Positions 2,951 to 62,786 of a stretch of DNA of 64,000 nucleotides are shown piece by piece. The notes under the pieces are model-generated. The model did no database searches, was not told the DNA's origin, and saw only the letters and a program-made list of their open reading frames with translations. The position numbers and the translations under genes were made by a program. This DNA comes from Candidatus Edwardsbacteria bacterium (GTDB lineage Bacteria; Edwardsbacteria; AC1; EtOH8). Each line of letters opens with the position of its first letter. Position 1 is the stretch's first letter. The stretch covers positions 7,348 to 71,347 of the forward strand of contig JAGVNJ010000074.1 in the NCBI GenBank assembly GCA_020053305.1, written 5' to 3'.

Positions 2951-4039
2951 ATGCTGTATCTGCTGTTATATCCCTTGGCCGATAAGATCCACTTCTTCAA
3001 TCTGTTCCGTTATATCACCTTCCGTTCGGCCTATGCCCTGGTGACGGCGCTGCTGATATCCTTCCTGATAGGGCCCTACATGATCCGGTGGCTTAAAAAA
3101 CTAAGGATCGGAGATACCGGCCGGGAGGACGCCCCGGACCACCATAAAAAAAAGGCCGGCACCCCCACCATGGGCGGGTTGATAATCCTGGCGGCCATAA
3201 TGATCCCGGTGCTATTATGGGCCGACTTAAGCAACCGTTACATCCAGATAGCCTCGCTGGCCACCCTGTGCCTGGGGGCCATCGGCTTCAGCGACGATTA
3301 CCTGAAGGTTGTCAAGAAACAGCCCAAGGGTCTGGTGGGCAGGAAAAAGCTGGCCGGCCAGATCGCCCTGTCGCTGGTGATAGGAGCCATTCTGGTCATC
3401 TATCCGTTGAACCCGGAGTTCGCCACCAAGACCAATTTTCTGTTCTTTAAAAATATCTTCGTCGATCTGGCCTGGTGGCTGTTCATTCCTTTTGTGGTGA
3501 TGGTCATAGTGGGGACCTCCAATGCCGTCAACCTGACCGACGGCCTGGACGGTCTGGCTATCGGGGTGGTGCTGTTCGCCGCCGCGGCCTATGCCGTGAT
3601 GTGCTATTTTGCCGGGAATTACAAGCTGGCCAGCTATCTCAACATCATATTCATGAAGGGCTCGGGAGAGCTGACCGTATTCTGTTCGGCCATTGTCGGG
3701 GCTTCGCTGGGCTTCCTGTGGTATAACGCCCATCCGGCCGAGATCATGATGGGCGACACCGGGTCGCTGGCCCTGGGCGGGGCCATAGGCACCACCGCCG
3801 TTCTGATCAAGCAGGAGATACTGCTGCTGATCGTGGGCGGGGTATTCGTGATGGAGGCCCTGTCGGTGATCCTGCAGGTGGCTTCCTTCAAACTGACCGG
3901 AAAACGGATCTTCAGAATGGCCCCCATCCACCATCATTTTACCATGAAAGGCTGGAGCGAGGAAAAGATAGTCACCCGCTTCTGGATAATAGCCCTGATC
4001 TGCGCCCTGGTGGCCCTCAGCACCCTGAAGATAAGATAG
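2951..4039 (+). CDS. mraY: phospho-N-acetylmuramoyl-pentapeptide transferase
   Basis: Polytopic membrane protein with the MraY signature stretches (NAVNLTDGLDGLA, MGDTGSLALGG), in dcw position. Confidence 0.95.
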   Translation: MLYLLLYPLADKIHFFNLFRYITFRSAYALVTALLISFLIGPYMIRWLKKLRIGDTGREDAPDHHKKKAGTPTMGGLIILAAIMIPVLLWADLSNRYIQIASLATLCLGAIGFSDDYLKVVKKQPKGLVGRKKLAGQIALSLVIGAILVIYPLNPEFATKTNFLFFKNIFVDLAWWLFIPFVVMVIVGTSNAVNLTDGLDGLAIGVVLFAAAAYAVMCYFAGNYKLASYLNIIFMKGSGELTVFCSAIVGASLGFLWYNAHPAEIMMGDTGSLALGGAIGTTAVLIKQEILLLIVGGVFVMEALSVILQVASFKLTGKRIFRMAPIHHHFTMKGWSEEKIVTRFWIIALICALVALSTLKIR

Positions 4040-4040
4040 A

Positions 4041-5405
4041 ATGAAACTCGATCTGGCAAATAAAAAAGTTTCGGTGATCGGCCTGGCCCGCAGCGGGATG
4101 GCGGCGGTGAGGCTTTTAAAAAAATCCGGGGCGGATGTCTTTGTCTCCGAGTTTAAAAACATTGCCCCCGAAGATTTGAAAGAGCTGGATAATTTGGGCG
4201 TGGTTCATGAAGCAGGAGGGCACACCGAAAAGCTGCTTGACAGCCGGATGATAGCGATCAGCCCGGGGGTCCGTACCGATATTCCGATCTTACAAAAGGC
4301 CGCCAAGATGGGCATCGAAGTGATCGGCGAAGTGGAGCTGGCTTACCGGGCCACCGGATCCCGGATCATCGCAGTCACCGGGACCAACGGCAAATCCACC
4401 ACTGTCTCCATGATCGGCAATATCCTTAAAGAATCGGGGAGGGATGTGCATATCGGCGGAAACCTGGCCCCGGGGAAACCCCTGTGCCAGCTGGCTATGG
4501 AAACCAAGCCCGATAGCATCATAGTGGCCGAGGTCAGCACTTTTCAGATAGAGACCATAAAGACATTCAAACCCTACATCGGCGTGGTGACCAATATCTC
4601 GCCGGACCACCTGGACCGGCACCCCGATTTTGAAAGCTATGCCCGGCTCAAAGGGGAGCTGTTGAAAAACCAGGATGAAACCGACCATTCGGTTCTGAAC
4701 CTGGATGATGCCAATGTTCAGAAATATTGCAGCGGGTACCGGGGAAAAAGGCTGGAATTCAGCCTGATAAAAACCGTGGATAACGGTTCTTGGTGGGACG
4801 GCCAAAACCTCAATATATCGCAGAATAAGATAAGCGATAAAGTTTTGGATACGGCAGAGCTCAAAGTTCCGGGGAAACATAACATCGCCAATGCCCTGGC
4901 GGCGATGGCCGCGACATCGGTCCTCAACGTTTCTTCGTCAGACATGGCGGCAGGGTTGGCCTCCTTCAAGGGAGTGCCGCACCGCCTGGAGGAAGTGGCG
5001 ATGATCAACGATGTCCGGTATATAAACAACTCCATGTGCACCAATAATGAGGCCGGGATAAATTCTCTGCGGGCCGTTGAAGGCCCTTTGGTGGTGATAG
5101 CCGGCGGCAAGGAGAAAGGGACCGACCTTTCCGGTTTCATGGCCGAGATTTCTAAGCGGGCCCGGGCAGCGGTGCTGATAGGCGAGGCCAGGGAAAGACT
5201 CAAAGCCGAACTGGATTCTCTGGGCTTCAGCAAGGTTATTTTGGCCGGCAATATGTCCGATGCCGTCAAGCGGGCATCCCGACAGGCCAAAGCCGGCGAT
5301 GCGGTGATACTGGCGCCGGGCTGCGCCAGCTTCGACATGTTCGTGGATTTTGAGGACCGGGGGGAGCAGTTCAAACAGGCGGTTCATGATTTGGAGAGCA
5401 GATGA
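4041..5405 (+). CDS. murD: UDP-N-acetylmuramoylalanine--D-glutamate ligase
   Basis: N-terminal Rossmann segment followed by a GTNGKSTT P-loop; Mur ligase. Confidence 0.9.
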   Translation: MKLDLANKKVSVIGLARSGMAAVRLLKKSGADVFVSEFKNIAPEDLKELDNLGVVHEAGGHTEKLLDSRMIAISPGVRTDIPILQKAAKMGIEVIGEVELAYRATGSRIIAVTGTNGKSTTVSMIGNILKESGRDVHIGGNLAPGKPLCQLAMETKPDSIIVAEVSTFQIETIKTFKPYIGVVTNISPDHLDRHPDFESYARLKGELLKNQDETDHSVLNLDDANVQKYCSGYRGKRLEFSLIKTVDNGSWWDGQNLNISQNKISDKVLDTAELKVPGKHNIANALAAMAATSVLNVSSSDMAAGLASFKGVPHRLEEVAMINDVRYINNSMCTNNEAGINSLRAVEGPLVVIAGGKEKGTDLSGFMAEISKRARAAVLIGEARERLKAELDSLGFSKVILAGNMSDAVKRASRQAKAGDAVILAPGCASFDMFVDFEDRGEQFKQAVHDLESR

Positions 5406-13424: not shown

Positions 13425-13515
13425 TCTTCTTTATTTGACCTCACCCCTCCGCCATTAGCAGGTGGTCCATATAGGCGGGCAAGCTGCCCCTCTTCTATTA
13501 AAACAGGAGAGGGGT
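13425..13515. repeat. gene-less copy of DUF559-module end (TTGACCTCACCCCT + CCCCTCT..AGAGGGG hairpin)
   Basis: The 14-mer TTGACCTCACCCCT is identical at 13425 and 53745. The hairpin CCCCTCT(14 nt)AGAGGGG at 13477-13504 matches those flanking the DUF559 genes. Confidence 0.5.
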
Positions 13516-13636
13516 TTTGTATGCCCGGTGGTTTGACCACCCCCGTCCCTCCCCGCAACGGAGAGGGCTTTTGTATTCCCTTCCCGAGGCGGGAAGAGGC
13601 AGGGGTTGGGTCCGTATCACCACGACCGCCAAACGA

Positions 13637-13664: not shown

Positions 13665-13722
13665 CCTATATCATTGCCAATTTATAGGGGTGATTAGTGA
13701 GTCGCCCGTACCACCAATTACC

Positions 13723-13752
13723 GTAGGGACACGGCATGCCGTTCGTCCCTAC
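13723..13752. repeat. REP-like palindrome GTAGGGACACGGCATGCCGTTCGTCCCTAC
   Basis: 8-bp terminal arms GTAGGGAC/GTCCCTAC with an internal palindromic core ACGGCATGCCGT. Confidence 0.6.
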
Positions 13753-13921: not shown

Positions 13922-13949
13922 GCAGGGGCAGGATGCATACTGCCCCTGC
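13922..13949. repeat. REP-like palindrome GCAGGGGCAGGATGCATACTGCCCCTGC
   Basis: Near-perfect 28-nt palindrome centred on ATGCAT; a 37-nt near-identical copy lies inside the RAYT gene. Confidence 0.7.
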
Positions 13950-14026
13950 GGGTACAAAACATAGAAATCAAATTGTCATGTCCGTAAACAATTCCAAACA
14001 TAAACGTCGTTCTATCCGCCTGCCAA

Positions 14027-14076
14027 CCTCACCCATCTCCCTCTCCTAATGCTTTAGGAGAGGGAGATGGGTGAGG
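14027..14076. repeat. 50-nt perfect hairpin (23-bp stem) of the CCTCACCC..CCCTCTCC family, inserted at RAYT 5' end
   Basis: CCTCACCCATCTCCCTCTCCTAA-tgct-TTAGGAGAGGGAGATGGGTGAGG. A TAA inside the right arm terminates the in-frame upstream RAYT reading frame. Confidence 0.75.
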
Positions 14077-14148
14077 TAAGGGGCGTATTACATAACAATC
14101 TGCGCCCAAGACCGCAAATGTATATTTGGTGCAATCGCCGATGGGCGG

Positions 14149-14583
14149 ATGGTATTAAACCCATTCGGCGAAATTGCCCGAAACGAATGGGTTAAAACCG
14201 GCGAATTACGGCCCTATGTCATTCCGGATGTATTTGTGATTATGCCGAATCATATTCATGGAATATTGATAATAACCGATGATGACCATTGTAGGGGCAC
14301 GATGCATCGTGCCCCTACGGGTACGACCGAACGTTTTGGCAAACCTGTCGCCGGATCATTGCCGACCATCATCCGTTGTTACACCGCGGCGGTGACCCGC
14401 CAGATAAATAAATTGCGCAATACCCCGGGCCATAAAATATGGCAACGTAATTATTACGAACACATCATCCGCAACGATAAATCATACGATAAAATCAGAC
14501 AATACATCATGGAAAACCCGCTGTATTGGCCGCAGGATGAGGAAAATCCCAACCGAGCAATTCCTAAAAACGCCATATCATAA
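14149..14583 (+). CDS. REP-associated tyrosine transposase (RAYT / IS200-like HUH Y1), probably 5'-truncated
   Basis: HUH motif (IMPNHIHGILII) and a C-terminal catalytic Tyr region (NYYEHIIRNDKSYDKIRQYIMENPLYW). The first beta-strand (..AYYITICAQDRKCIFG) is encoded in-frame upstream of the ATG but is cut off by a stop inside an inserted 50-bp hairpin. Confidence 0.7.
   Translation: MVLNPFGEIARNEWVKTGELRPYVIPDVFVIMPNHIHGILIITDDDHCRGTMHRAPTGTTERFGKPVAGSLPTIIRCYTAAVTRQINKLRNTPGHKIWQRNYYEHIIRNDKSYDKIRQYIMENPLYWPQDEENPNRAIPKNAIS
14291..14318. repeat. perfect 28-nt REP-like palindrome GTAGGGGCACGATGCATCGTGCCCCTAC inside RAYT coding sequence
   Basis: Perfect palindrome. It is translated as ..HCRGTMHRAPTGT.. 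between the HUH and Tyr motifs. Confidence 0.75.
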
Positions 14584-52078: not shown

Positions 52079-53725
52079 ATGATAAAAGACTACCTGCGTA
52101 AAAATATTTCCCAAACCATCGAGCAGACTCTGGGACTAACGATCGATCCTTCCCAGATCGGGCTGGAGAAGCCCAAACAGGACGGCCACGGCGACTGGTC
52201 CACCAATATCGCCCTGAACCTGTCCAAAAGCCTGAAGGAGAACCCCCGGAAGCTGGCCGACCAGATCACGGCCTCCCTGAAGCTTGATCCCGAGCTGGTG
52301 TCCCAGACGGAGGTGGCCGGGCCGGGATTCATAAACTTCAAGCTGGCTTCGGGCTGGCTGTACAGCGAGCTGGTGACCCTGCTGGACAAGAAAAATTCCT
52401 TCGGCTGCTGTGATCACGGGAAAGGGGAAAAGGTTCAGGTGGAGTTCGTCTCGGTAAATCCCACCGGGCCGTTGCACGTGGGCCACGGGCGGGGAGCCTT
52501 CGTGGGCGATGCCATCGCCCGGCTTCTGCAGTGCGTGGGCTACCAGGTCCACCGGGAGTATTACATAAACGACGCCGGCAACCAGATAGACAAGCTGGGC
52601 CGCTCGGTGCTGGCCCGTTTGAACGAGCGGTGGGGTCGGCCCTTTGAATTTCCCGAGGGCGGCTACCAGGGCGAGTATCTAAAAGGTTTTGCCGACCAGC
52701 TGGATTCCGAACAGGGGGACCGGCTAAAAGCCCTTTCATCAGACGAACTGCTGGCAGAGGTCACCAGGATCTCACGGGACGGCATGCTGGAGAACCTGAA
52801 GCTGTCGTTAAAGGACCTGAAGGTGGAGTTCGATGAATGGTTTTCCGAGGTCGGCCTGGTGGAATCCGGGGCCATCAGTAGATCATTGGAAGAACTGAAG
52901 AAGAAGGGCTACCTCTACGAGCAGGATGGAGCGCAGTTCTTCAAGGCCAGCGAGTTCGGGGACGAGAAGGACCGGGTGGTGATCAAGTCCACAGGGGAAC
53001 ACACCTATTTTGCCGCCGACATCGCCTATCTGCTGAATAAGTTCGGCCGGGGCTTTAAAAGACTGATCTACGTCTGGGGGGCCGACCATCACGGCGACGT
53101 TCCCCGCATGAAGGGCGCGGCCCAGGCGCTGGGGCATGATCCCGATTCGCTGGAGTTCATCCTGATGCAGATGGTCCGCCTGATCGAGGAGGGCCGGGAG
53201 GTCAAGTTCTCCAAACGCAGCGGGGTGATAGTCACCCTGGATGAACTGCGGGACGAGGTGGGGCCGGACGTGATGCGGTATTTCTTTCTGATGCGGCGCA
53301 GCGAAAGCCAGTTCGATTTCGACCTGGACCTGGCCCGCAAGCACTCCGACGAGAACCCGGTCTTTTACGTTCAGTACGCCCACGCCCGGATCTGCAGCAT
53401 CATCGACCACGCCCGGGAGAAGGGCATCAACCGGGCCAAGAGCGACCTGGCTCTGCTGAAGGAGAAGGAGGAGATCAACCTGATCAAGGCCCTGCTGGAA
53501 TTTTCCGAGGTGGTGCTGGGGGCGGCCATGGCCCGGGAGCCGCACCGCCTGCCGACCTACCTGCAGGACCTGGCCGGGGTGTTCCATACTTTTTATCACC
53601 AGCACCGGGTGGTGACCGAAGACGCCGGACTGACCCAGGCCCGGCTTGACCTGTGCGACGCCGCCCGGATAGTGTTCGCCAACGGGTTGAGTCTGCTGGG
53701 GGTCAGCGCCCCGGAGAAGATGTGA
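52079..53725 (+). CDS. argS: arginine--tRNA ligase
   Basis: Class-I HIGH motif (PTGPLHVGHGRG), an ArgS N-terminal domain, and a C-terminal DALR anticodon-binding region. Confidence 0.9.
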   Translation: MIKDYLRKNISQTIEQTLGLTIDPSQIGLEKPKQDGHGDWSTNIALNLSKSLKENPRKLADQITASLKLDPELVSQTEVAGPGFINFKLASGWLYSELVTLLDKKNSFGCCDHGKGEKVQVEFVSVNPTGPLHVGHGRGAFVGDAIARLLQCVGYQVHREYYINDAGNQIDKLGRSVLARLNERWGRPFEFPEGGYQGEYLKGFADQLDSEQGDRLKALSSDELLAEVTRISRDGMLENLKLSLKDLKVEFDEWFSEVGLVESGAISRSLEELKKKGYLYEQDGAQFFKASEFGDEKDRVVIKSTGEHTYFAADIAYLLNKFGRGFKRLIYVWGADHHGDVPRMKGAAQALGHDPDSLEFILMQMVRLIEEGREVKFSKRSGVIVTLDELRDEVGPDVMRYFFLMRRSESQFDFDLDLARKHSDENPVFYVQYAHARICSIIDHAREKGINRAKSDLALLKEKEEINLIKALLEFSEVVLGAAMAREPHRLPTYLQDLAGVFHTFYHQHRVVTEDAGLTQARLDLCDAARIVFANGLSLLGVSAPEKM

Positions 53726-53744
53726 CCAGAATCCCAGCCCAAAG

Positions 53745-54266
53745 TTGACCTCACCCCTGCCCCTCTCCAAAGGCATTTGGAGAGGGAGGTTGTAATGAGT
53801 AAAAGCATTTATGGCAAGTACAAAGAATTTTGGTGTCAGCACCGGCCGCCGGATCAAGAACGAAAAACTAGAAATGGCCAAACAAATGCGGCGGGAGATG
53901 ACCTATGCCGAGCGGTGTTTTTGGAACGGGGTCAGGGGCCGCAAACTGCATGGCTTGAAGTTCCGCCGCCAGCAGATCATAGACGGGTTTATAGCTGATT
54001 TCTATTGTAATGAGTTAAGGCTGATTGTTGAGATAGACGGCGGTGTTCATGAGACCCAGAAGGATTACGATAAACTGCGCGACAGGATAATCAGCCGGAA
54101 TGAAATTAAAGTGATCCGGTTTTCCAACGAGTTAGTCGTAGACCAGTTTGATACTGTGGCCAGACGTATTGGTGAACTACGTCCTCCCTCGCCAGGTTTA
54201 CCTGGAGAGAGCCTGCACCGAGATGGCCACAATAAATGACAAACGAAAGTGGGCAGGGGTGAGGTC
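53745..54266. mobile_element. DUF559 endonuclease module bounded by 16-bp inverted repeats and hairpins
   Basis: TTGACCTCACCCCTGCCC (53745-53762) and its reverse complement GGGCAGGGGTGAGGTC (54251-54266). Internal hairpins CCCCTCTCCAAAggcaTTTGGAGAGGG and CCTCCCTCgCCAGGtttaCCTGGAGAGAG sit at the two ends of the gene. Confidence 0.55.
53874..54239 (+). CDS. DUF559 (Vsr/PD-(D/E)xK-like) endonuclease domain protein
   Basis: ..AKQMRREMTYAERCFWNGVRGRKLHGLKFRRQQIIDGFIADFYCNELRLIVEIDGGVHE.. is canonical DUF559. The start is set at the internal ATG 53874; the ORF-track start is 53811. The C-terminal tail PPSPGLPGESLHRDGHNK is encoded by hairpin DNA. Confidence 0.75.
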   Translation: MAKQMRREMTYAERCFWNGVRGRKLHGLKFRRQQIIDGFIADFYCNELRLIVEIDGGVHETQKDYDKLRDRIISRNEIKVIRFSNELVVDQFDTVARRIGELRPPSPGLPGESLHRDGHNK

Positions 54267-54947
54267 GAAACCATGAGCTTAAAAACCAATTACATAGGCC
54301 ACGACTCCCAGTACAAACGTTTCAAGGCCGAGGGAATGAACGGCTGGAACGACGAGGAGACCTGGCAGGCGTGGAAGACGGAAATACTTGCACTGATCGC
54401 TTCGGATGGTTTCCCGAAGTCTGGCAAAGTACTGGAGTTGGGATGCGGGGCCGGAGATGTGGCCCTGTTGTTTGCGGAAAAGGGATATCAGGTCTCGGGC
54501 ATTGACATCGCTCCAACTGCCATCGAGTGGGCCAGGGAGAAAGCTATCAGGGCAGGCCTGAGAGCGGAGTTTGAAGTTGGTGACGTTACGAATTTGGGAA
54601 GATGGGAAAACGGGACGTTTGATATTGTGGTCGACGGGCATTGTCTGCATTGCATAATCGGGAAGGACAGGTCCGAGGTCCTGAAAGAAACATACCGGGT
54701 ATTGAAACCGGGCGGGATATTCTATGTAAGCACCATGTGCGGGGAGCCCAAGGAACCGGAAGTGTTGAAGAATTATGATCCAGAATCACGTTGCATGGTA
54801 TATAGTGGTGTGGCCGGAAGGTATTTCGGCAGGGCGGAGGATATCATCAAAGAGATAGAGAAAGCAGGGTTCAAGATCAGACGGCACGAAGTACGGGGAA
54901 ATAACGATACGCAGGACGATTTGATCGTGCTTGCGATAAAACAATAA
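54249..54947 (+). CDS. class I SAM-dependent methyltransferase
   Basis: Motif I VLELGCGAGDVA, motif II DIVVD, and a post-I acidic residue (GIDIA). Confidence 0.75.
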   Translation: MGRGEVETMSLKTNYIGHDSQYKRFKAEGMNGWNDEETWQAWKTEILALIASDGFPKSGKVLELGCGAGDVALLFAEKGYQVSGIDIAPTAIEWAREKAIRAGLRAEFEVGDVTNLGRWENGTFDIVVDGHCLHCIIGKDRSEVLKETYRVLKPGGIFYVSTMCGEPKEPEVLKNYDPESRCMVYSGVAGRYFGRAEDIIKEIEKAGFKIRRHEVRGNNDTQDDLIVLAIKQ

Positions 54948-62322: not shown

Positions 62323-62326
62323 AAGT

Positions 62327-62786
62327 CCCCTCTGGGCAAGAGGGGATTTAGGGGTGTGTTCATGAAAATCTACTACAATGCCAAACTAAAAGAGAAAGCC
62401 CGCCAGCTGCGGAATAACAGCACTAAAGCAGAGATCCGGCTTTGGCAGCATCTCAGAGGCAAAAAGGTAATGGGCTATGATTTTCACCGGCAAAAGCCGA
62501 TAGGCAATTATATTGCCGATTTTTTCTGTCCCAAATTGAATTTAGCAATAGAGGTTGACGGATACACCCATAGTTTTGAAGAGGTCGTTAAGAAGGATCA
62601 TAAAAAACAGGGCTATCTTGAGGATCTGGGTCTAACAGTTATGCGTTTTAAGGATGAAGAGGTTTTTTATGATATCGATTCGGTGTTGAATGGGATCAAG
62701 CAGTACATAATTGGACACACCCCTCGTTCCCCTCTTTGTAGAGGGGAGGAACACACCCCTAACCCCTCTTATTAGAGGGGAATAGA
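62327..62786. mobile_element. DUF559 endonuclease module with 11-bp inverted repeats and CCCCTCT/AGAGGGG hairpins
   Basis: Left end: CCCCTCTgggcaAGAGGGG followed by AGGGGTGTGTT (62350-62360). Right end: AACACACCCCT (62750-62760), flanked by CCCCTCTttgtAGAGGGG and CCCCTCTtattAGAGGGG. The stop codon lies inside the last hairpin. Confidence 0.55.
62356..62775 (+). CDS. DUF559 (Vsr/PD-(D/E)xK-like) endonuclease domain protein (paralog)
   Basis: ..AKLKEKARQLRNNSTKAEIRLWQHLRGKKVMGYDFHRQKPIGNYIADFFCPKLNLAIEVDGYTH..; the ATG at 62362 is the probable start. The C-terminal tail GHTPRSPLCRGEEHTPNPSY is encoded by hairpins. Confidence 0.75.
   Translation: MFMKIYYNAKLKEKARQLRNNSTKAEIRLWQHLRGKKVMGYDFHRQKPIGNYIADFFCPKLNLAIEVDGYTHSFEEVVKKDHKKQGYLEDLGLTVMRFKDEEVFYDIDSVLNGIKQYIIGHTPRSPLCRGEEHTPNPSY

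Follow-up and report, generated by a model that had tools for sequence, protein, structure and literature searches.

The window analyzed here is a 64,000-nt (64-kb) stretch of contig JAGVNJ010000074.1 from a Candidatus Edwardsbacteria bacterium (GCA_020053305.1), and the subject of this study is a small DUF559 gene and the structured repeats that flank it. Among orphan nuclease families, DUF559 ranks with the commonest, and E. coli ycjD is one of its members. The gene, termed copy 1, is the middle one of three on the forward strand: argS (52079–53725), an open reading frame (ORF) of 142 amino acids (53811–54239), and an S-adenosylmethionine (SAM) methyltransferase gene with its ATG at 54274. 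The features of the locus are listed below in window coordinates.

53745–53789, reverse strand: left repeat, BoxC-like, composed of a box, a GC spacer, and a hairpin (motif search match at 53749–53786, reverse strand, with 0 third-strand mismatches; see below).
53811–54239, forward strand: DUF559 copy 1, predicted Vsr-like PD-(D/E)xK nuclease gene, 142 amino acids, with the domain at residues 20–120.
About 54186–54211, forward strand: hairpin of the right repeat, CCCTCGCCAGG-TTTA-CCTGGAGAGAG, imperfect.
54210–54250, forward strand: insert of ~41 nt, AGCCTGCACCGAGATGG...CGAAAGTG, between the right hairpin and the third strand, containing the DUF559 stop codon (54237–54239).
54251–54266, forward strand: third strand (box) of the right repeat, GGGCAGGGGTGAGGTC, the right arm of a 16-nt inverted repeat, stopping 7 nt short of the methyltransferase ATG.

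The copy 1 product is a DUF559 member, matching Pfam PF04480 with 111.8 bits (E = 1.9e-32; gathering cutoff 20.6). Its nearest solved structure is PDB: 3HRL (E = 1e-14), the N. gonorrhoeae "endonuclease-like protein" NGO0050, of unknown function. Foldseek ranked 3HRL first against the AlphaFold model of copy 1 (predicted local distance difference test score, 80.6), followed by the I-Bth0305I catalytic domain (PDB: 3R3P) and then by the Vsr-like domains of PvuRts1I and AbaSI; structural TM-scores normalized to target length were 0.83 for 3HRL and 0.68 for 3R3P. The best functionally characterized structural match is the homing endonuclease I-Bth0305I. Residues D63, E74, D76, and H80 are invariant across 28 diverse DUF559 sequences. 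Judged from sequence and model together, copy 1 encodes a putative Vsr-like nuclease that keeps catalytic-type residues.

The gene is enclosed by a perfect inverted repeat of 16 nt (GACCTCACCCCTGCCC at 53747–53762 and GGGCAGGGGTGAGGTC at 54251–54266; 100% complementary). A preliminary description of the locus had reported this repeat, and it holds except that the two leading T's assigned to the left arm lie outside it, the right side reading TCGACC. Within the left repeat, a box that is the complement of the third strand (GACCTCACCCCT, 53747–53758) is followed by a GC spacer and a hairpin (CCCTCTCCAAA / TTTGGAGAGGG, 53761–53786) with a perfect 11-bp stem (53761–53771 / 53776–53786; DNA folding free energy [dG] of −12.8 kcal/mol, z = −3.9). 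Its G-rich arm, GGAGAGGGAGG, resembles a Shine-Dalgarno sequence. The preliminary description had placed hairpins at both gene ends: the left one is as described, and the right one is present although imperfect and weaker, the 89-nt right end folding with z = −1.7. It had also proposed that the 3′ hairpin is read through, which is borne out. The ORF runs through the hairpin into a tail, ...PPSPGLPGESLHRDGHNK, encoded by the right repeat and its insert, and this tail has no predicted structure and low confidence in the AlphaFold model. A 14-mer search allowing two mismatches gave 4 matches in the window against 0.52 expected, and CCCTCTCC-N(3–20)-GGAGAGGG gave 2 matches in the window against 0 in 100 shuffles.

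Four related metagenomic loci show the right end without the insert. The left repeat is kept in L001, L002, L003, and L128, and the ~41-nt insert is missing from all four in the alignment. Their right end reads CCCTCGCCAG(G/A)TTTA(C/T)CTGGAGAGGG-GCAGGGGTGAGGTC in L001, L002, and L003, and is identical in L128 with one G fewer; because it repeats the entire left end in inverted orientation, the terminal repeat in L001, L002, and L003 spans ~43 nt. The purine arm of the right repeat in relatives is CCTGGAGAGGG, with the third strand directly after it, and the DUF559 stop TGA and methyltransferase start GTG both fall within GGGGTGAGG. Upstream, argS ends at a TGA that belongs to a degenerate TGACC box. 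A promoter and terminator scan found nothing at the repeat ends and 0 terminator-like sites in 53500–54500, so the DUF559 gene is probably co-transcribed with its neighbors.

The argS–DUF559–methyltransferase order is shared by L001, L002, and L128, with DUF559 protein identities of 76–77%, and related proteins carry Candidatus Edwardsbacteria labels. L003 contains a member of the same cassette family (81% protein identity) in a gene context other than argS|methyltransferase. Copy 1 is an old, vertically inherited, syntenic cassette with a damaged right end that is not recently mobile.

The flanking modules are recognizable by sequence as a known repeat, variously called BoxC, PIT element, or intrastrand triplex motif (TM), and are not new. 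The repeat has been known since 1992, earlier as BoxC and PIT elements (Bergler 1992; Hoyne and Maher 2000, as cited in PMC4666352), and its E. coli form, TM_ECO, was given as CCCTCTCCC-loop-GGGAGAGGG-NN-GGGGTGAGGG by Holder et al. (2015, NAR 43:10126; PMC4666352). In that work the box supplies the third strand of an intrastrand purine-motif triplex and mirrors the purine arm, and one G/C-rich TM, present in >260 genomes, forms a stable triplex in vitro. TMs were found in nearly all bacterial phyla and were tied to genome rearrangement and, in E. coli, to rearrangement of loci; no enzyme, mobility mechanism, or function was assigned to them, and mobility genes (transposase, integrase) were never found beside them in the 2015 survey (PMC4666352). 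Compared with TM_ECO, the window modules have the same layout (C/T arm, short loop, purine arm, 1–7 nt spacer, and G-rich mirror third strand) and a near-identical sequence (CCCTCTCC / GGAGAGGG / GGGGTGAGG), and both occur singly or as inverted pairs and in many phyla. The window motifs differ in that they bracket a nuclease gene, whereas neither an associated gene class nor mobility genes were reported in the published work.

TMs were located with a finder specifying a C/T arm, a loop of 3–16 nt, an exact purine arm, a spacer of 0–7 nt, and a mirror third strand in which a single mismatch was allowed. It returned 8 matches in the window at five sites, compared with 0–1 in shuffled windows: 53749–53786 (reverse), 62326–62357 (forward), 62717–62747 (reverse), 62753–62780 (reverse), and 14024–14077, with 0–1 mismatches. 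The hairpin of C-rich pyrimidine arm, loop, and complementary purine arm occurs at 53761–53786 and at four more sites, including 14026–14077; the G-rich mirror block is likewise present at the window sites, and the motif is multi-copy and dispersed across distant bacteria. The right TM of copy 1 fails the finder only because of the 41-nt insert and is intact in L001, L002, and L003. Triplex formation at the TM copies of the window is predicted from their letters, and the hairpin energies are computed values.

Eighty metagenomic DUF559 loci, relatives of copy 1 at 38–77% identity, were fetched and their flanks compared with the rest of the same contigs. Perfect-stem C-arm hairpins occurred within 250 nt on both flanks in 41/80 loci and on one flank in 24/80, at a density of 4.55 per kb near DUF559 versus 0.115 per kb elsewhere, with the peak 0–50 nt from the DUF559 domain ends. 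A full TM lay within 250 nt of DUF559 at 68 of the 80 loci (85%), and full TM density was 6.3 per kb near the gene versus 0.12 elsewhere on the same contigs and 0.24 in other crude non-coding DNA, an enrichment of 26–53 times background. Many DUF559 homologs have N- or C-terminal "PSP...GEG" tails that are translated TMs. Such tails and TM flanks fit a report that "DUF559 domain-containing protein" is 14-fold enriched among predicted inversion targets (PMC9881135). The arrangement first noticed at copy 1, a DUF559 gene between hairpin repeats, is also found at the second copy of the window, in 68/80 metagenomic relatives, and at E. coli ycjD. Our search of the literature on DUF559, COG2852, ycjD, and triplex follow-ups found no published DUF559–TM link. 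The association of DUF559 with TMs is strong, one-sided, and cross-phylum, and we found no published description of it.

The second DUF559 gene of the window lies between moaC and a MOSC gene.

62326–62357, forward strand: TM left of copy 2, TCCCCTCT-gggca-AGAGGGGA with spacer ttt and third strand AGGGGTGT (0 mismatches in the TM finder; fold z = −3.2).
62362–62775, forward strand: DUF559 copy 2, YcjD-like, found by tblastn and 36.5% identical to copy 1.
62717–62780, reverse strand: two tandem TMs right of copy 2 (62717–62747 and 62753–62780), with boxes GGACACACCCCT and GAACACACCCCT facing the gene.

Copy 2 matched NCBIfam PRK09767 (E = 9.5e-22), and its tail, ...HTPRSPLCRGEEHTPNPSY, is encoded by the TMs. 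Its flank module combines the box GAACACACCCCT with a CCCCTCT / AGAGGGG hairpin, and hairpins are located at 62327–62345, 62730–62747, and 62764–62780. The TM boxes of copy 2 point toward the gene, the reverse of the arrangement at copy 1. Both DUF559 genes of the window are thus TM-flanked.

The moaC|MOSC slot exists in two allele states among relatives, as is seen with homing endonucleases. DUF559 fills it both in the window and in L212 (GCA_031082425.1); the two DUF559 proteins are 85% identical, as are the two MOSC proteins. Five relatives have no DUF559 there.

L210 and L211 (L210 is on the contig of L001): moaC–MOSC spacer of 69 nt; MOSC 87% identical to the window.
L213: spacer of 136 nt with a GTAG-like palindrome; MOSC 88% identical to the window.
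L214 and L215: spacer of 136 nt with a GTAG-like palindrome; MOSC 81% identical to the window.

Every allele in the alignment retains a left TCCCCTCTGGG... and a right box with the CCCTCCCC-GATGC-GGAGAGGG TM, and the variable part is what lies between the TMs. The preliminary description had suggested looking for insertion polymorphism; among these relatives the slot is either occupied or empty.

Direct duplications were identified directly outside the TMs at independent loci. They are 33–70 bp long and variable in length; the two copies and the number of matching positions are given for each locus.

L003: 145–214 / 694–763, 60/70 nt; the 3′ end of the upstream gene is duplicated.
L004: 2867–2916 / 3540–3589, 50/50 nt; the first 50 nt of radA, exactly from its ATG.
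L005: 2885–2934 / 3390–3439, 44/50 nt; the same radA segment as in L004.
L143: 798–830 / 1382–1414, 31/33 nt; from the ATG of the downstream gene.
L142: 1454–1504 / 2120–2169, 45/51 nt; non-repeat flanking sequence.

To judge from its C terminus, the upstream gene in L003 may be urocanase-like. In two independent cases (radA and L143) the downstream gene's ATG is the exact point at which the duplication begins, and the native target of L143, GAAAACTTCATCC, is similar to the box GAAAACCTCACCC. In L003 and L004 the TGA within the element's TGACC closes the upstream duplicate, and the downstream duplicate starts a few to ~20 nt past the right TM end in L003, L004, L005, and L143. Long flanking duplications surround only ~3/110 solo TMs and thus do not characterize TMs in general. 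The same cassette family also occupies two contexts, argS|methyltransferase and the differing one of L003. By these sequence comparisons, the DUF559 gene and its TMs are inserted as a unit. The mobile unit of the preliminary description survives to the extent that gene and repeats went in together, as indicated by the 33–70 bp target duplications and the occupied or empty slot; copy 1 itself is old and syntenic.

E. coli YcjD and NGO0050 (3HRL) belong to the same family as the window proteins (NCBIfam PRK09767 matches; E = 1e-14 for 3HRL), although they differ from copy 1, with about 36% identity or less. The K-12 ycjD gene (b1289, DUF559; L208, NC_000913.3 1351040–1351830) ends ...RSPSP*, and a degenerate C-arm hairpin holds its stop codon in the loop. 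Located 3′ of ycjD are a ~60-nt copy of its own 3′ end (~50 matches) and then TM_ECO no. 9, in the fabI–ycjD spacer; ycjD and fabI go unmentioned in Holder et al. (PMC4666352). The gene fills the fabI–sapF interval exactly in phylogroups without eefRABCD (PMC12817139, 2026). Lineages A/B1/C are ycjD-positive, and B2 and others are ycjD-negative. The ycjD allele is present in 3346 of 5426 complete E. coli genomes, and in the other genomes listed, fabI-side homology stops ~40 nt before the TM. Like the window copies, ycjD has a hairpin at its stop codon and a TM following, and it is present or absent among strains; the duplicate of its 3′ end lies between hairpin and TM. The alternative allele in E. 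coli is a 7.8-kb efflux operon (eefRABCD), not an empty spacer as at moaC|MOSC.

The identity of the repeat, the nuclease fold, the ~50-fold TM enrichment, the target duplications, the occupied and empty alleles, and the age of copy 1 are supported directly. We infer the action of DUF559 on TMs and its manner. The reading we put forward, at a probability of roughly 0.4, is that DUF559 and TMs form a nuclease-plus-cognate-repeat partnership in which DUF559 would act on TM structures and break repair would spread the TMs and occasionally move the gene. In this model the Vsr-like nuclease would recognize or nick a non-B form of the TM, either hairpin or triplex, and the resulting breaks would be mended by recombination with other TM-bearing loci. 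Repair would multiply TMs, preferentially close to the nuclease gene, and now and then copy the gene to a new site or TM-bounded slot, an insertion that would at times leave long target duplications. The ends could be tolerated in operons, the upstream gene taking its stop from the left TGACC and the next start its ribosome-binding site from the G-rich arm. Such an association gives TM repeats and DUF559, both orphans, a candidate partner each and can be tested in E. coli, and it would explain both the "PSP...GEG" tails and the appearance of DUF559 among predicted inversion targets (PMC9881135). A wider claim, possible and as yet doubtful, is that YcjD-type DUF559 proteins are the missing enzyme of BoxC/PIT/TM repeats, structure-specific Vsr-like nickases driving TM spread and the linked rearrangements. 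If true, there would be a second domesticated nuclease with a genome-wide repeat beside RAYT–REP, independently evolved, with a PD-(D/E)xK fold and long target duplications.

Two known systems offer comparisons for the proposed partnership. Like a REPtron (Quentin et al. 2018; PMC6006769), it would pair a nuclease gene present in one or a few copies with flanking copies of a short structured repeat that is dispersed in many more; the nuclease gene itself can be a site of repeat insertion, and the distribution is patchy and crosses phyla. A gene flanked by genome-dispersed repeats was found in the window and the 80 loci; the flanked gene is DUF559, a predicted Vsr-like PD-(D/E)xK nuclease, and not an HUH-Y1 transposase, and TMs have triplex rather than simple hairpin symmetry and no 5′ GT[AG]G foot at the hairpin base, where they read ...GGGGTGAGG. 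I-Bth0305I (EDxHD/Vsr-like; 3R3P) and free-standing homing genes share the structural match, the small, selfish-looking gene, and the occupied or empty alleles of one slot. They differ in that the DUF559 gene is not in an intron or intein and its presumed target is a dispersed repeat, not one conserved gene; classical homing also yields no target duplications, whereas DUF559 cassettes have 33–70 bp ones.

Several results weigh against a DUF559–TM partnership. We scanned genome_contigs with a 25-base TM pattern, ACCTCACCC N2–6 CCCTCTCC N4–14 GGAGAGGG, for which we estimate ~0.06 chance matches in 596 Gb, and recovered at least 120 loci; those listed span Cyanobacteria, Bacteroidota, Chloroflexota, Alphaproteobacteria, Patescibacteria, Verrucomicrobiota, Acidobacteriota, Ignavibacteria, and others. 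Among the matches listed, DUF559 was near the TM in only 2/120 loci (L031 and L035, the latter arranged like copy 1 as forward TM, DUF559, reverse TM), leaving 118/120 (~98%) without it. The flanks, which the preliminary description took for DUF559-specific termini, are thus copies of a generic repeat, the outcome it had itself said would refute that idea. The same pattern was found in at least 120 viral_contigs (IMG/VR; L249–L368), some with 3–5 copies, and DUF559 was near the TM in 0/120 of the matches listed. With 2/120 genomic and 0/120 viral loci listed having DUF559, TMs evidently last and spread with no DUF559 in cis; transfer between hosts could take place on phages or prophages. Conversely, a TM accompanied only 1 of 33 distant DUF559 genes on viral contigs, which suggests that the link is specific to some subfamilies, and the 80 metagenomic loci are those most closely related to copy 1 and lack phylogenetic independence.

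The architecture of the flanks is also heterogeneous. There are ~3 TMs per DUF559 gene, often degenerate and with unbiased orientation, and the longest repeat shared between flanks was inverted (≥12 nt) in 24/73 loci and direct (≥12 nt) in 34/73, so no uniform terminal-repeat architecture exists. The constant terminal inverted repeats and fixed short target duplication of a transposon or miniature inverted-repeat transposable element were not found, and the fixed terminal inverted repeats of the preliminary description do not hold up. TM stem type tracked DUF559 similarity weakly (49.9% versus 47.5% identity, p about 0.004), which could be explained by shared ancestry. Movement is rare at best, because copy 1 has been inherited vertically at 76–77% amino acid identity in three syntenic contigs, and for the moaC|MOSC slot MOSC identity alone gives conflicting signals on gain versus loss. 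In the literature we found no paper tying DUF559 to TMs biochemically or genetically.

The first alternative is that DUF559 is a passive hitch-hiker: TMs would be fragile, recombinogenic sequences spread by host processes or another enzyme, and DUF559, serving repair or defense, would be a small dispensable gene caught between them, unstable spacers of this sort being places where such genes collect and persist. This is unlikely in our judgment, even though it accommodates the rearrangements linked to TMs in E. coli (PMC4666352) and the many TMs without DUF559 nearby. The contents of TM-bounded slots also vary as it would predict, from a 66-nt spacer with a GTAG-like REP to nothing to DUF559, and in E. 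coli from eefRABCD to ycjD. A passive passenger fits less well with TMs flanking 85% of this DUF559 subfamily at 26–53 times background, and no protein family other than the rare DUF559 recurred next to TMs in the 120 genomic loci listed. Small nuclease genes of the GIY-YIG (L002) and PDDEXK_3 (L004) families carry other inverted repeats, not TMs.

A second alternative, which we consider improbable, makes the hairpins cis-regulatory or insulating elements that control the nuclease gene, through sequestration of a ribosome-binding site in the G-arm, mRNA stability, or stop and start signals for a toxic gene in an operon, with TMs elsewhere being unrelated. The hairpin peak at 0–50 nt from the domain ends would suit such a role, as would the G-arm GGAGAGGGAGG preceding the DUF559 start in relatives, GGGGTGAGG preceding the start of the downstream gene, the termination of upstream ORFs in the TGA of TGACC, and the probable co-transcription with neighbors in the absence of a promoter or terminator at the ends. 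About three TMs per gene in either orientation, many degenerate, are a poor fit to a precise element, distant viral-contig DUF559 genes lack TMs, and the target duplications and occupied or empty alleles would be left unexplained. Earlier work found PIT elements to have neither promoter nor terminator activity (PMC4666352).

A RAYT-like gene and its surroundings at ~14 kb bear on a third alternative, in which the flank repeats are REP/REPIN sequences moved in trans by this HUH-Y1 transposase, with DUF559 as cargo. Apart from the DUF559 flanks, clear copies of the repeat in the 64 kb occur only at 13435–13612 and 14026–14077.

13435–13612, forward strand: degenerate TM cluster in the ftsZ–RAYT spacer, starting with TTGACCTCACCCCT and ending with AGGGGTTGGGTC.
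14026–14077, no strand: stand-alone double TM palindrome of the copy 1 type, with a 24-bp perfect stem (ACCTCACCCATCTCCCTCTCCTAA / TTAGGAGAGGGAGATGGGTGAGGT; dG −30.4, z = −11).
14291–14318, 13922–13949, and about 13717–13750: GTAG/CTAC "double-foot" REP palindromes (GTAGGGGCACGATG / CATCGTGCCCCTAC), distinct from TMs.

The distant 14-mer of the preliminary description (TTGACCTCACCCCT) does recur; it lies at 13435–13448 rather than 13425, in the ftsZ–RAYT spacer ~540 nt upstream of the RAYT-like pseudogene, and amid degenerate repeat copies rather than in a simply gene-less context. The RAYT-like ORF (13979–14583, palindrome removed) matched NCBIfam REP_Tyr_transpos with E = 4.4e-17 and 62 bits, below the cutoff of 80. 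In its 5′ part, 7 codons are replaced by a 54-nt TM palindrome with 2 stop codons: the intact relative P0121 (88% identical) reads RRSIRLPEYDYLREGAYYITICAQ, of which EYDYLRE is the part replaced in the window. The RAYT-like gene is probably a pseudogene, as far as its sequence indicates. One REP palindrome (14291–14318) is in frame inside the gene, coding for CRGTMHRAPT, and the other two are upstream, the pattern of subclass-2.4 of Quentin et al. (2018; PMC6006769).

Cargo of this kind is very improbable. In its favor are a RAYT-like gene with TM copies beside and inside it and, in other genomes, several TM loci that are inverted doublets with 40–110 bp spacers. RAYT genes flanked by cognate REP/REPIN repeats are reportedly the subject of work by Bertels and Rainey in 2011 and Nunvar in 2010. 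RAYT was rejected as the TM mobilizer: the gene is itself disrupted by a TM, its cognate repeat is the different GTAG palindrome, the GT[AG]G foot is missing from TMs, and the 1.2 Mb of TM or DUF559 loci that were fetched yielded no RAYT. Because the repeats of the RAYT-like gene differ from TMs, the pairing within this one window is of RAYT with GTAG-REPs and of DUF559 with TMs. Accidental G+C-rich palindromes near a small gene have a negligible chance of accounting for the data: the right-end fold alone is insignificant (z = −1.7), and chance is already refuted by the counts of hairpins (0 in shuffles versus 2) and TMs (0–1 versus 8), by at least 120 loci for a pattern expected ~0.06 times in 596 Gb by our estimate, and by the 26–53-fold enrichment around DUF559.

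The ~41-nt insert in the right TM of copy 1 has a counterpart. A search across all fetched loci found a homologous insert in L004 (about 3056–3100) at the same TM position, so that an insert of 41–44 nt (AGCCTGCACyGAG...CGAA(A)GTG) separates purine arm and third strand in two unrelated TMs and may represent a tiny TM-targeting element. We dropped a hammerhead-like interpretation of the insert, since the window copy does not conserve the CUGANGA core and Rfam found no ribozyme there; an Rfam scan of the insert region gave nothing. Rfam scans of the whole window at gathering scores and of both repeat regions at E ≤ 10 gave only sub-threshold miRNA-like hairpin noise.

Other nuclease genes on the fetched contigs have repeats of their own. 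L002 (1840–2250) contains a GIY-YIG gene of 96 amino acids with its own different inverted repeats, TCATTGCGAG...CGAAGCAATCCA, and L004 (5450–5930) a PDDEXK_3 gene of 124 amino acids with CACAGATGGCACAGAT / ATCTGTGCAATCTGTG, neither pair being TMs; repeat-flanked nuclease cassettes may be a general pattern. In L003, L006, and L007, the contig or stored stretch ends 65–275 nt upstream of DUF559, at or near TMs, as expected if these repeats break short-read assemblies. At the cyanobacterial loci L021, L043, L047, L095, and L100, the TMs are nested in larger palindromic elements (TATAGCGGTTTTCGGTTGAG...), and L043, L100, and other loci have a small extra hairpin between the purine arm and the third strand. 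In L128, the right TM (3381–3420) is one G shorter than in L001, and because of this missing G the frames of DUF559 and the downstream methyltransferase are joined into one stop-free frame (2992–4086), representing either a real fusion or an assembly error.

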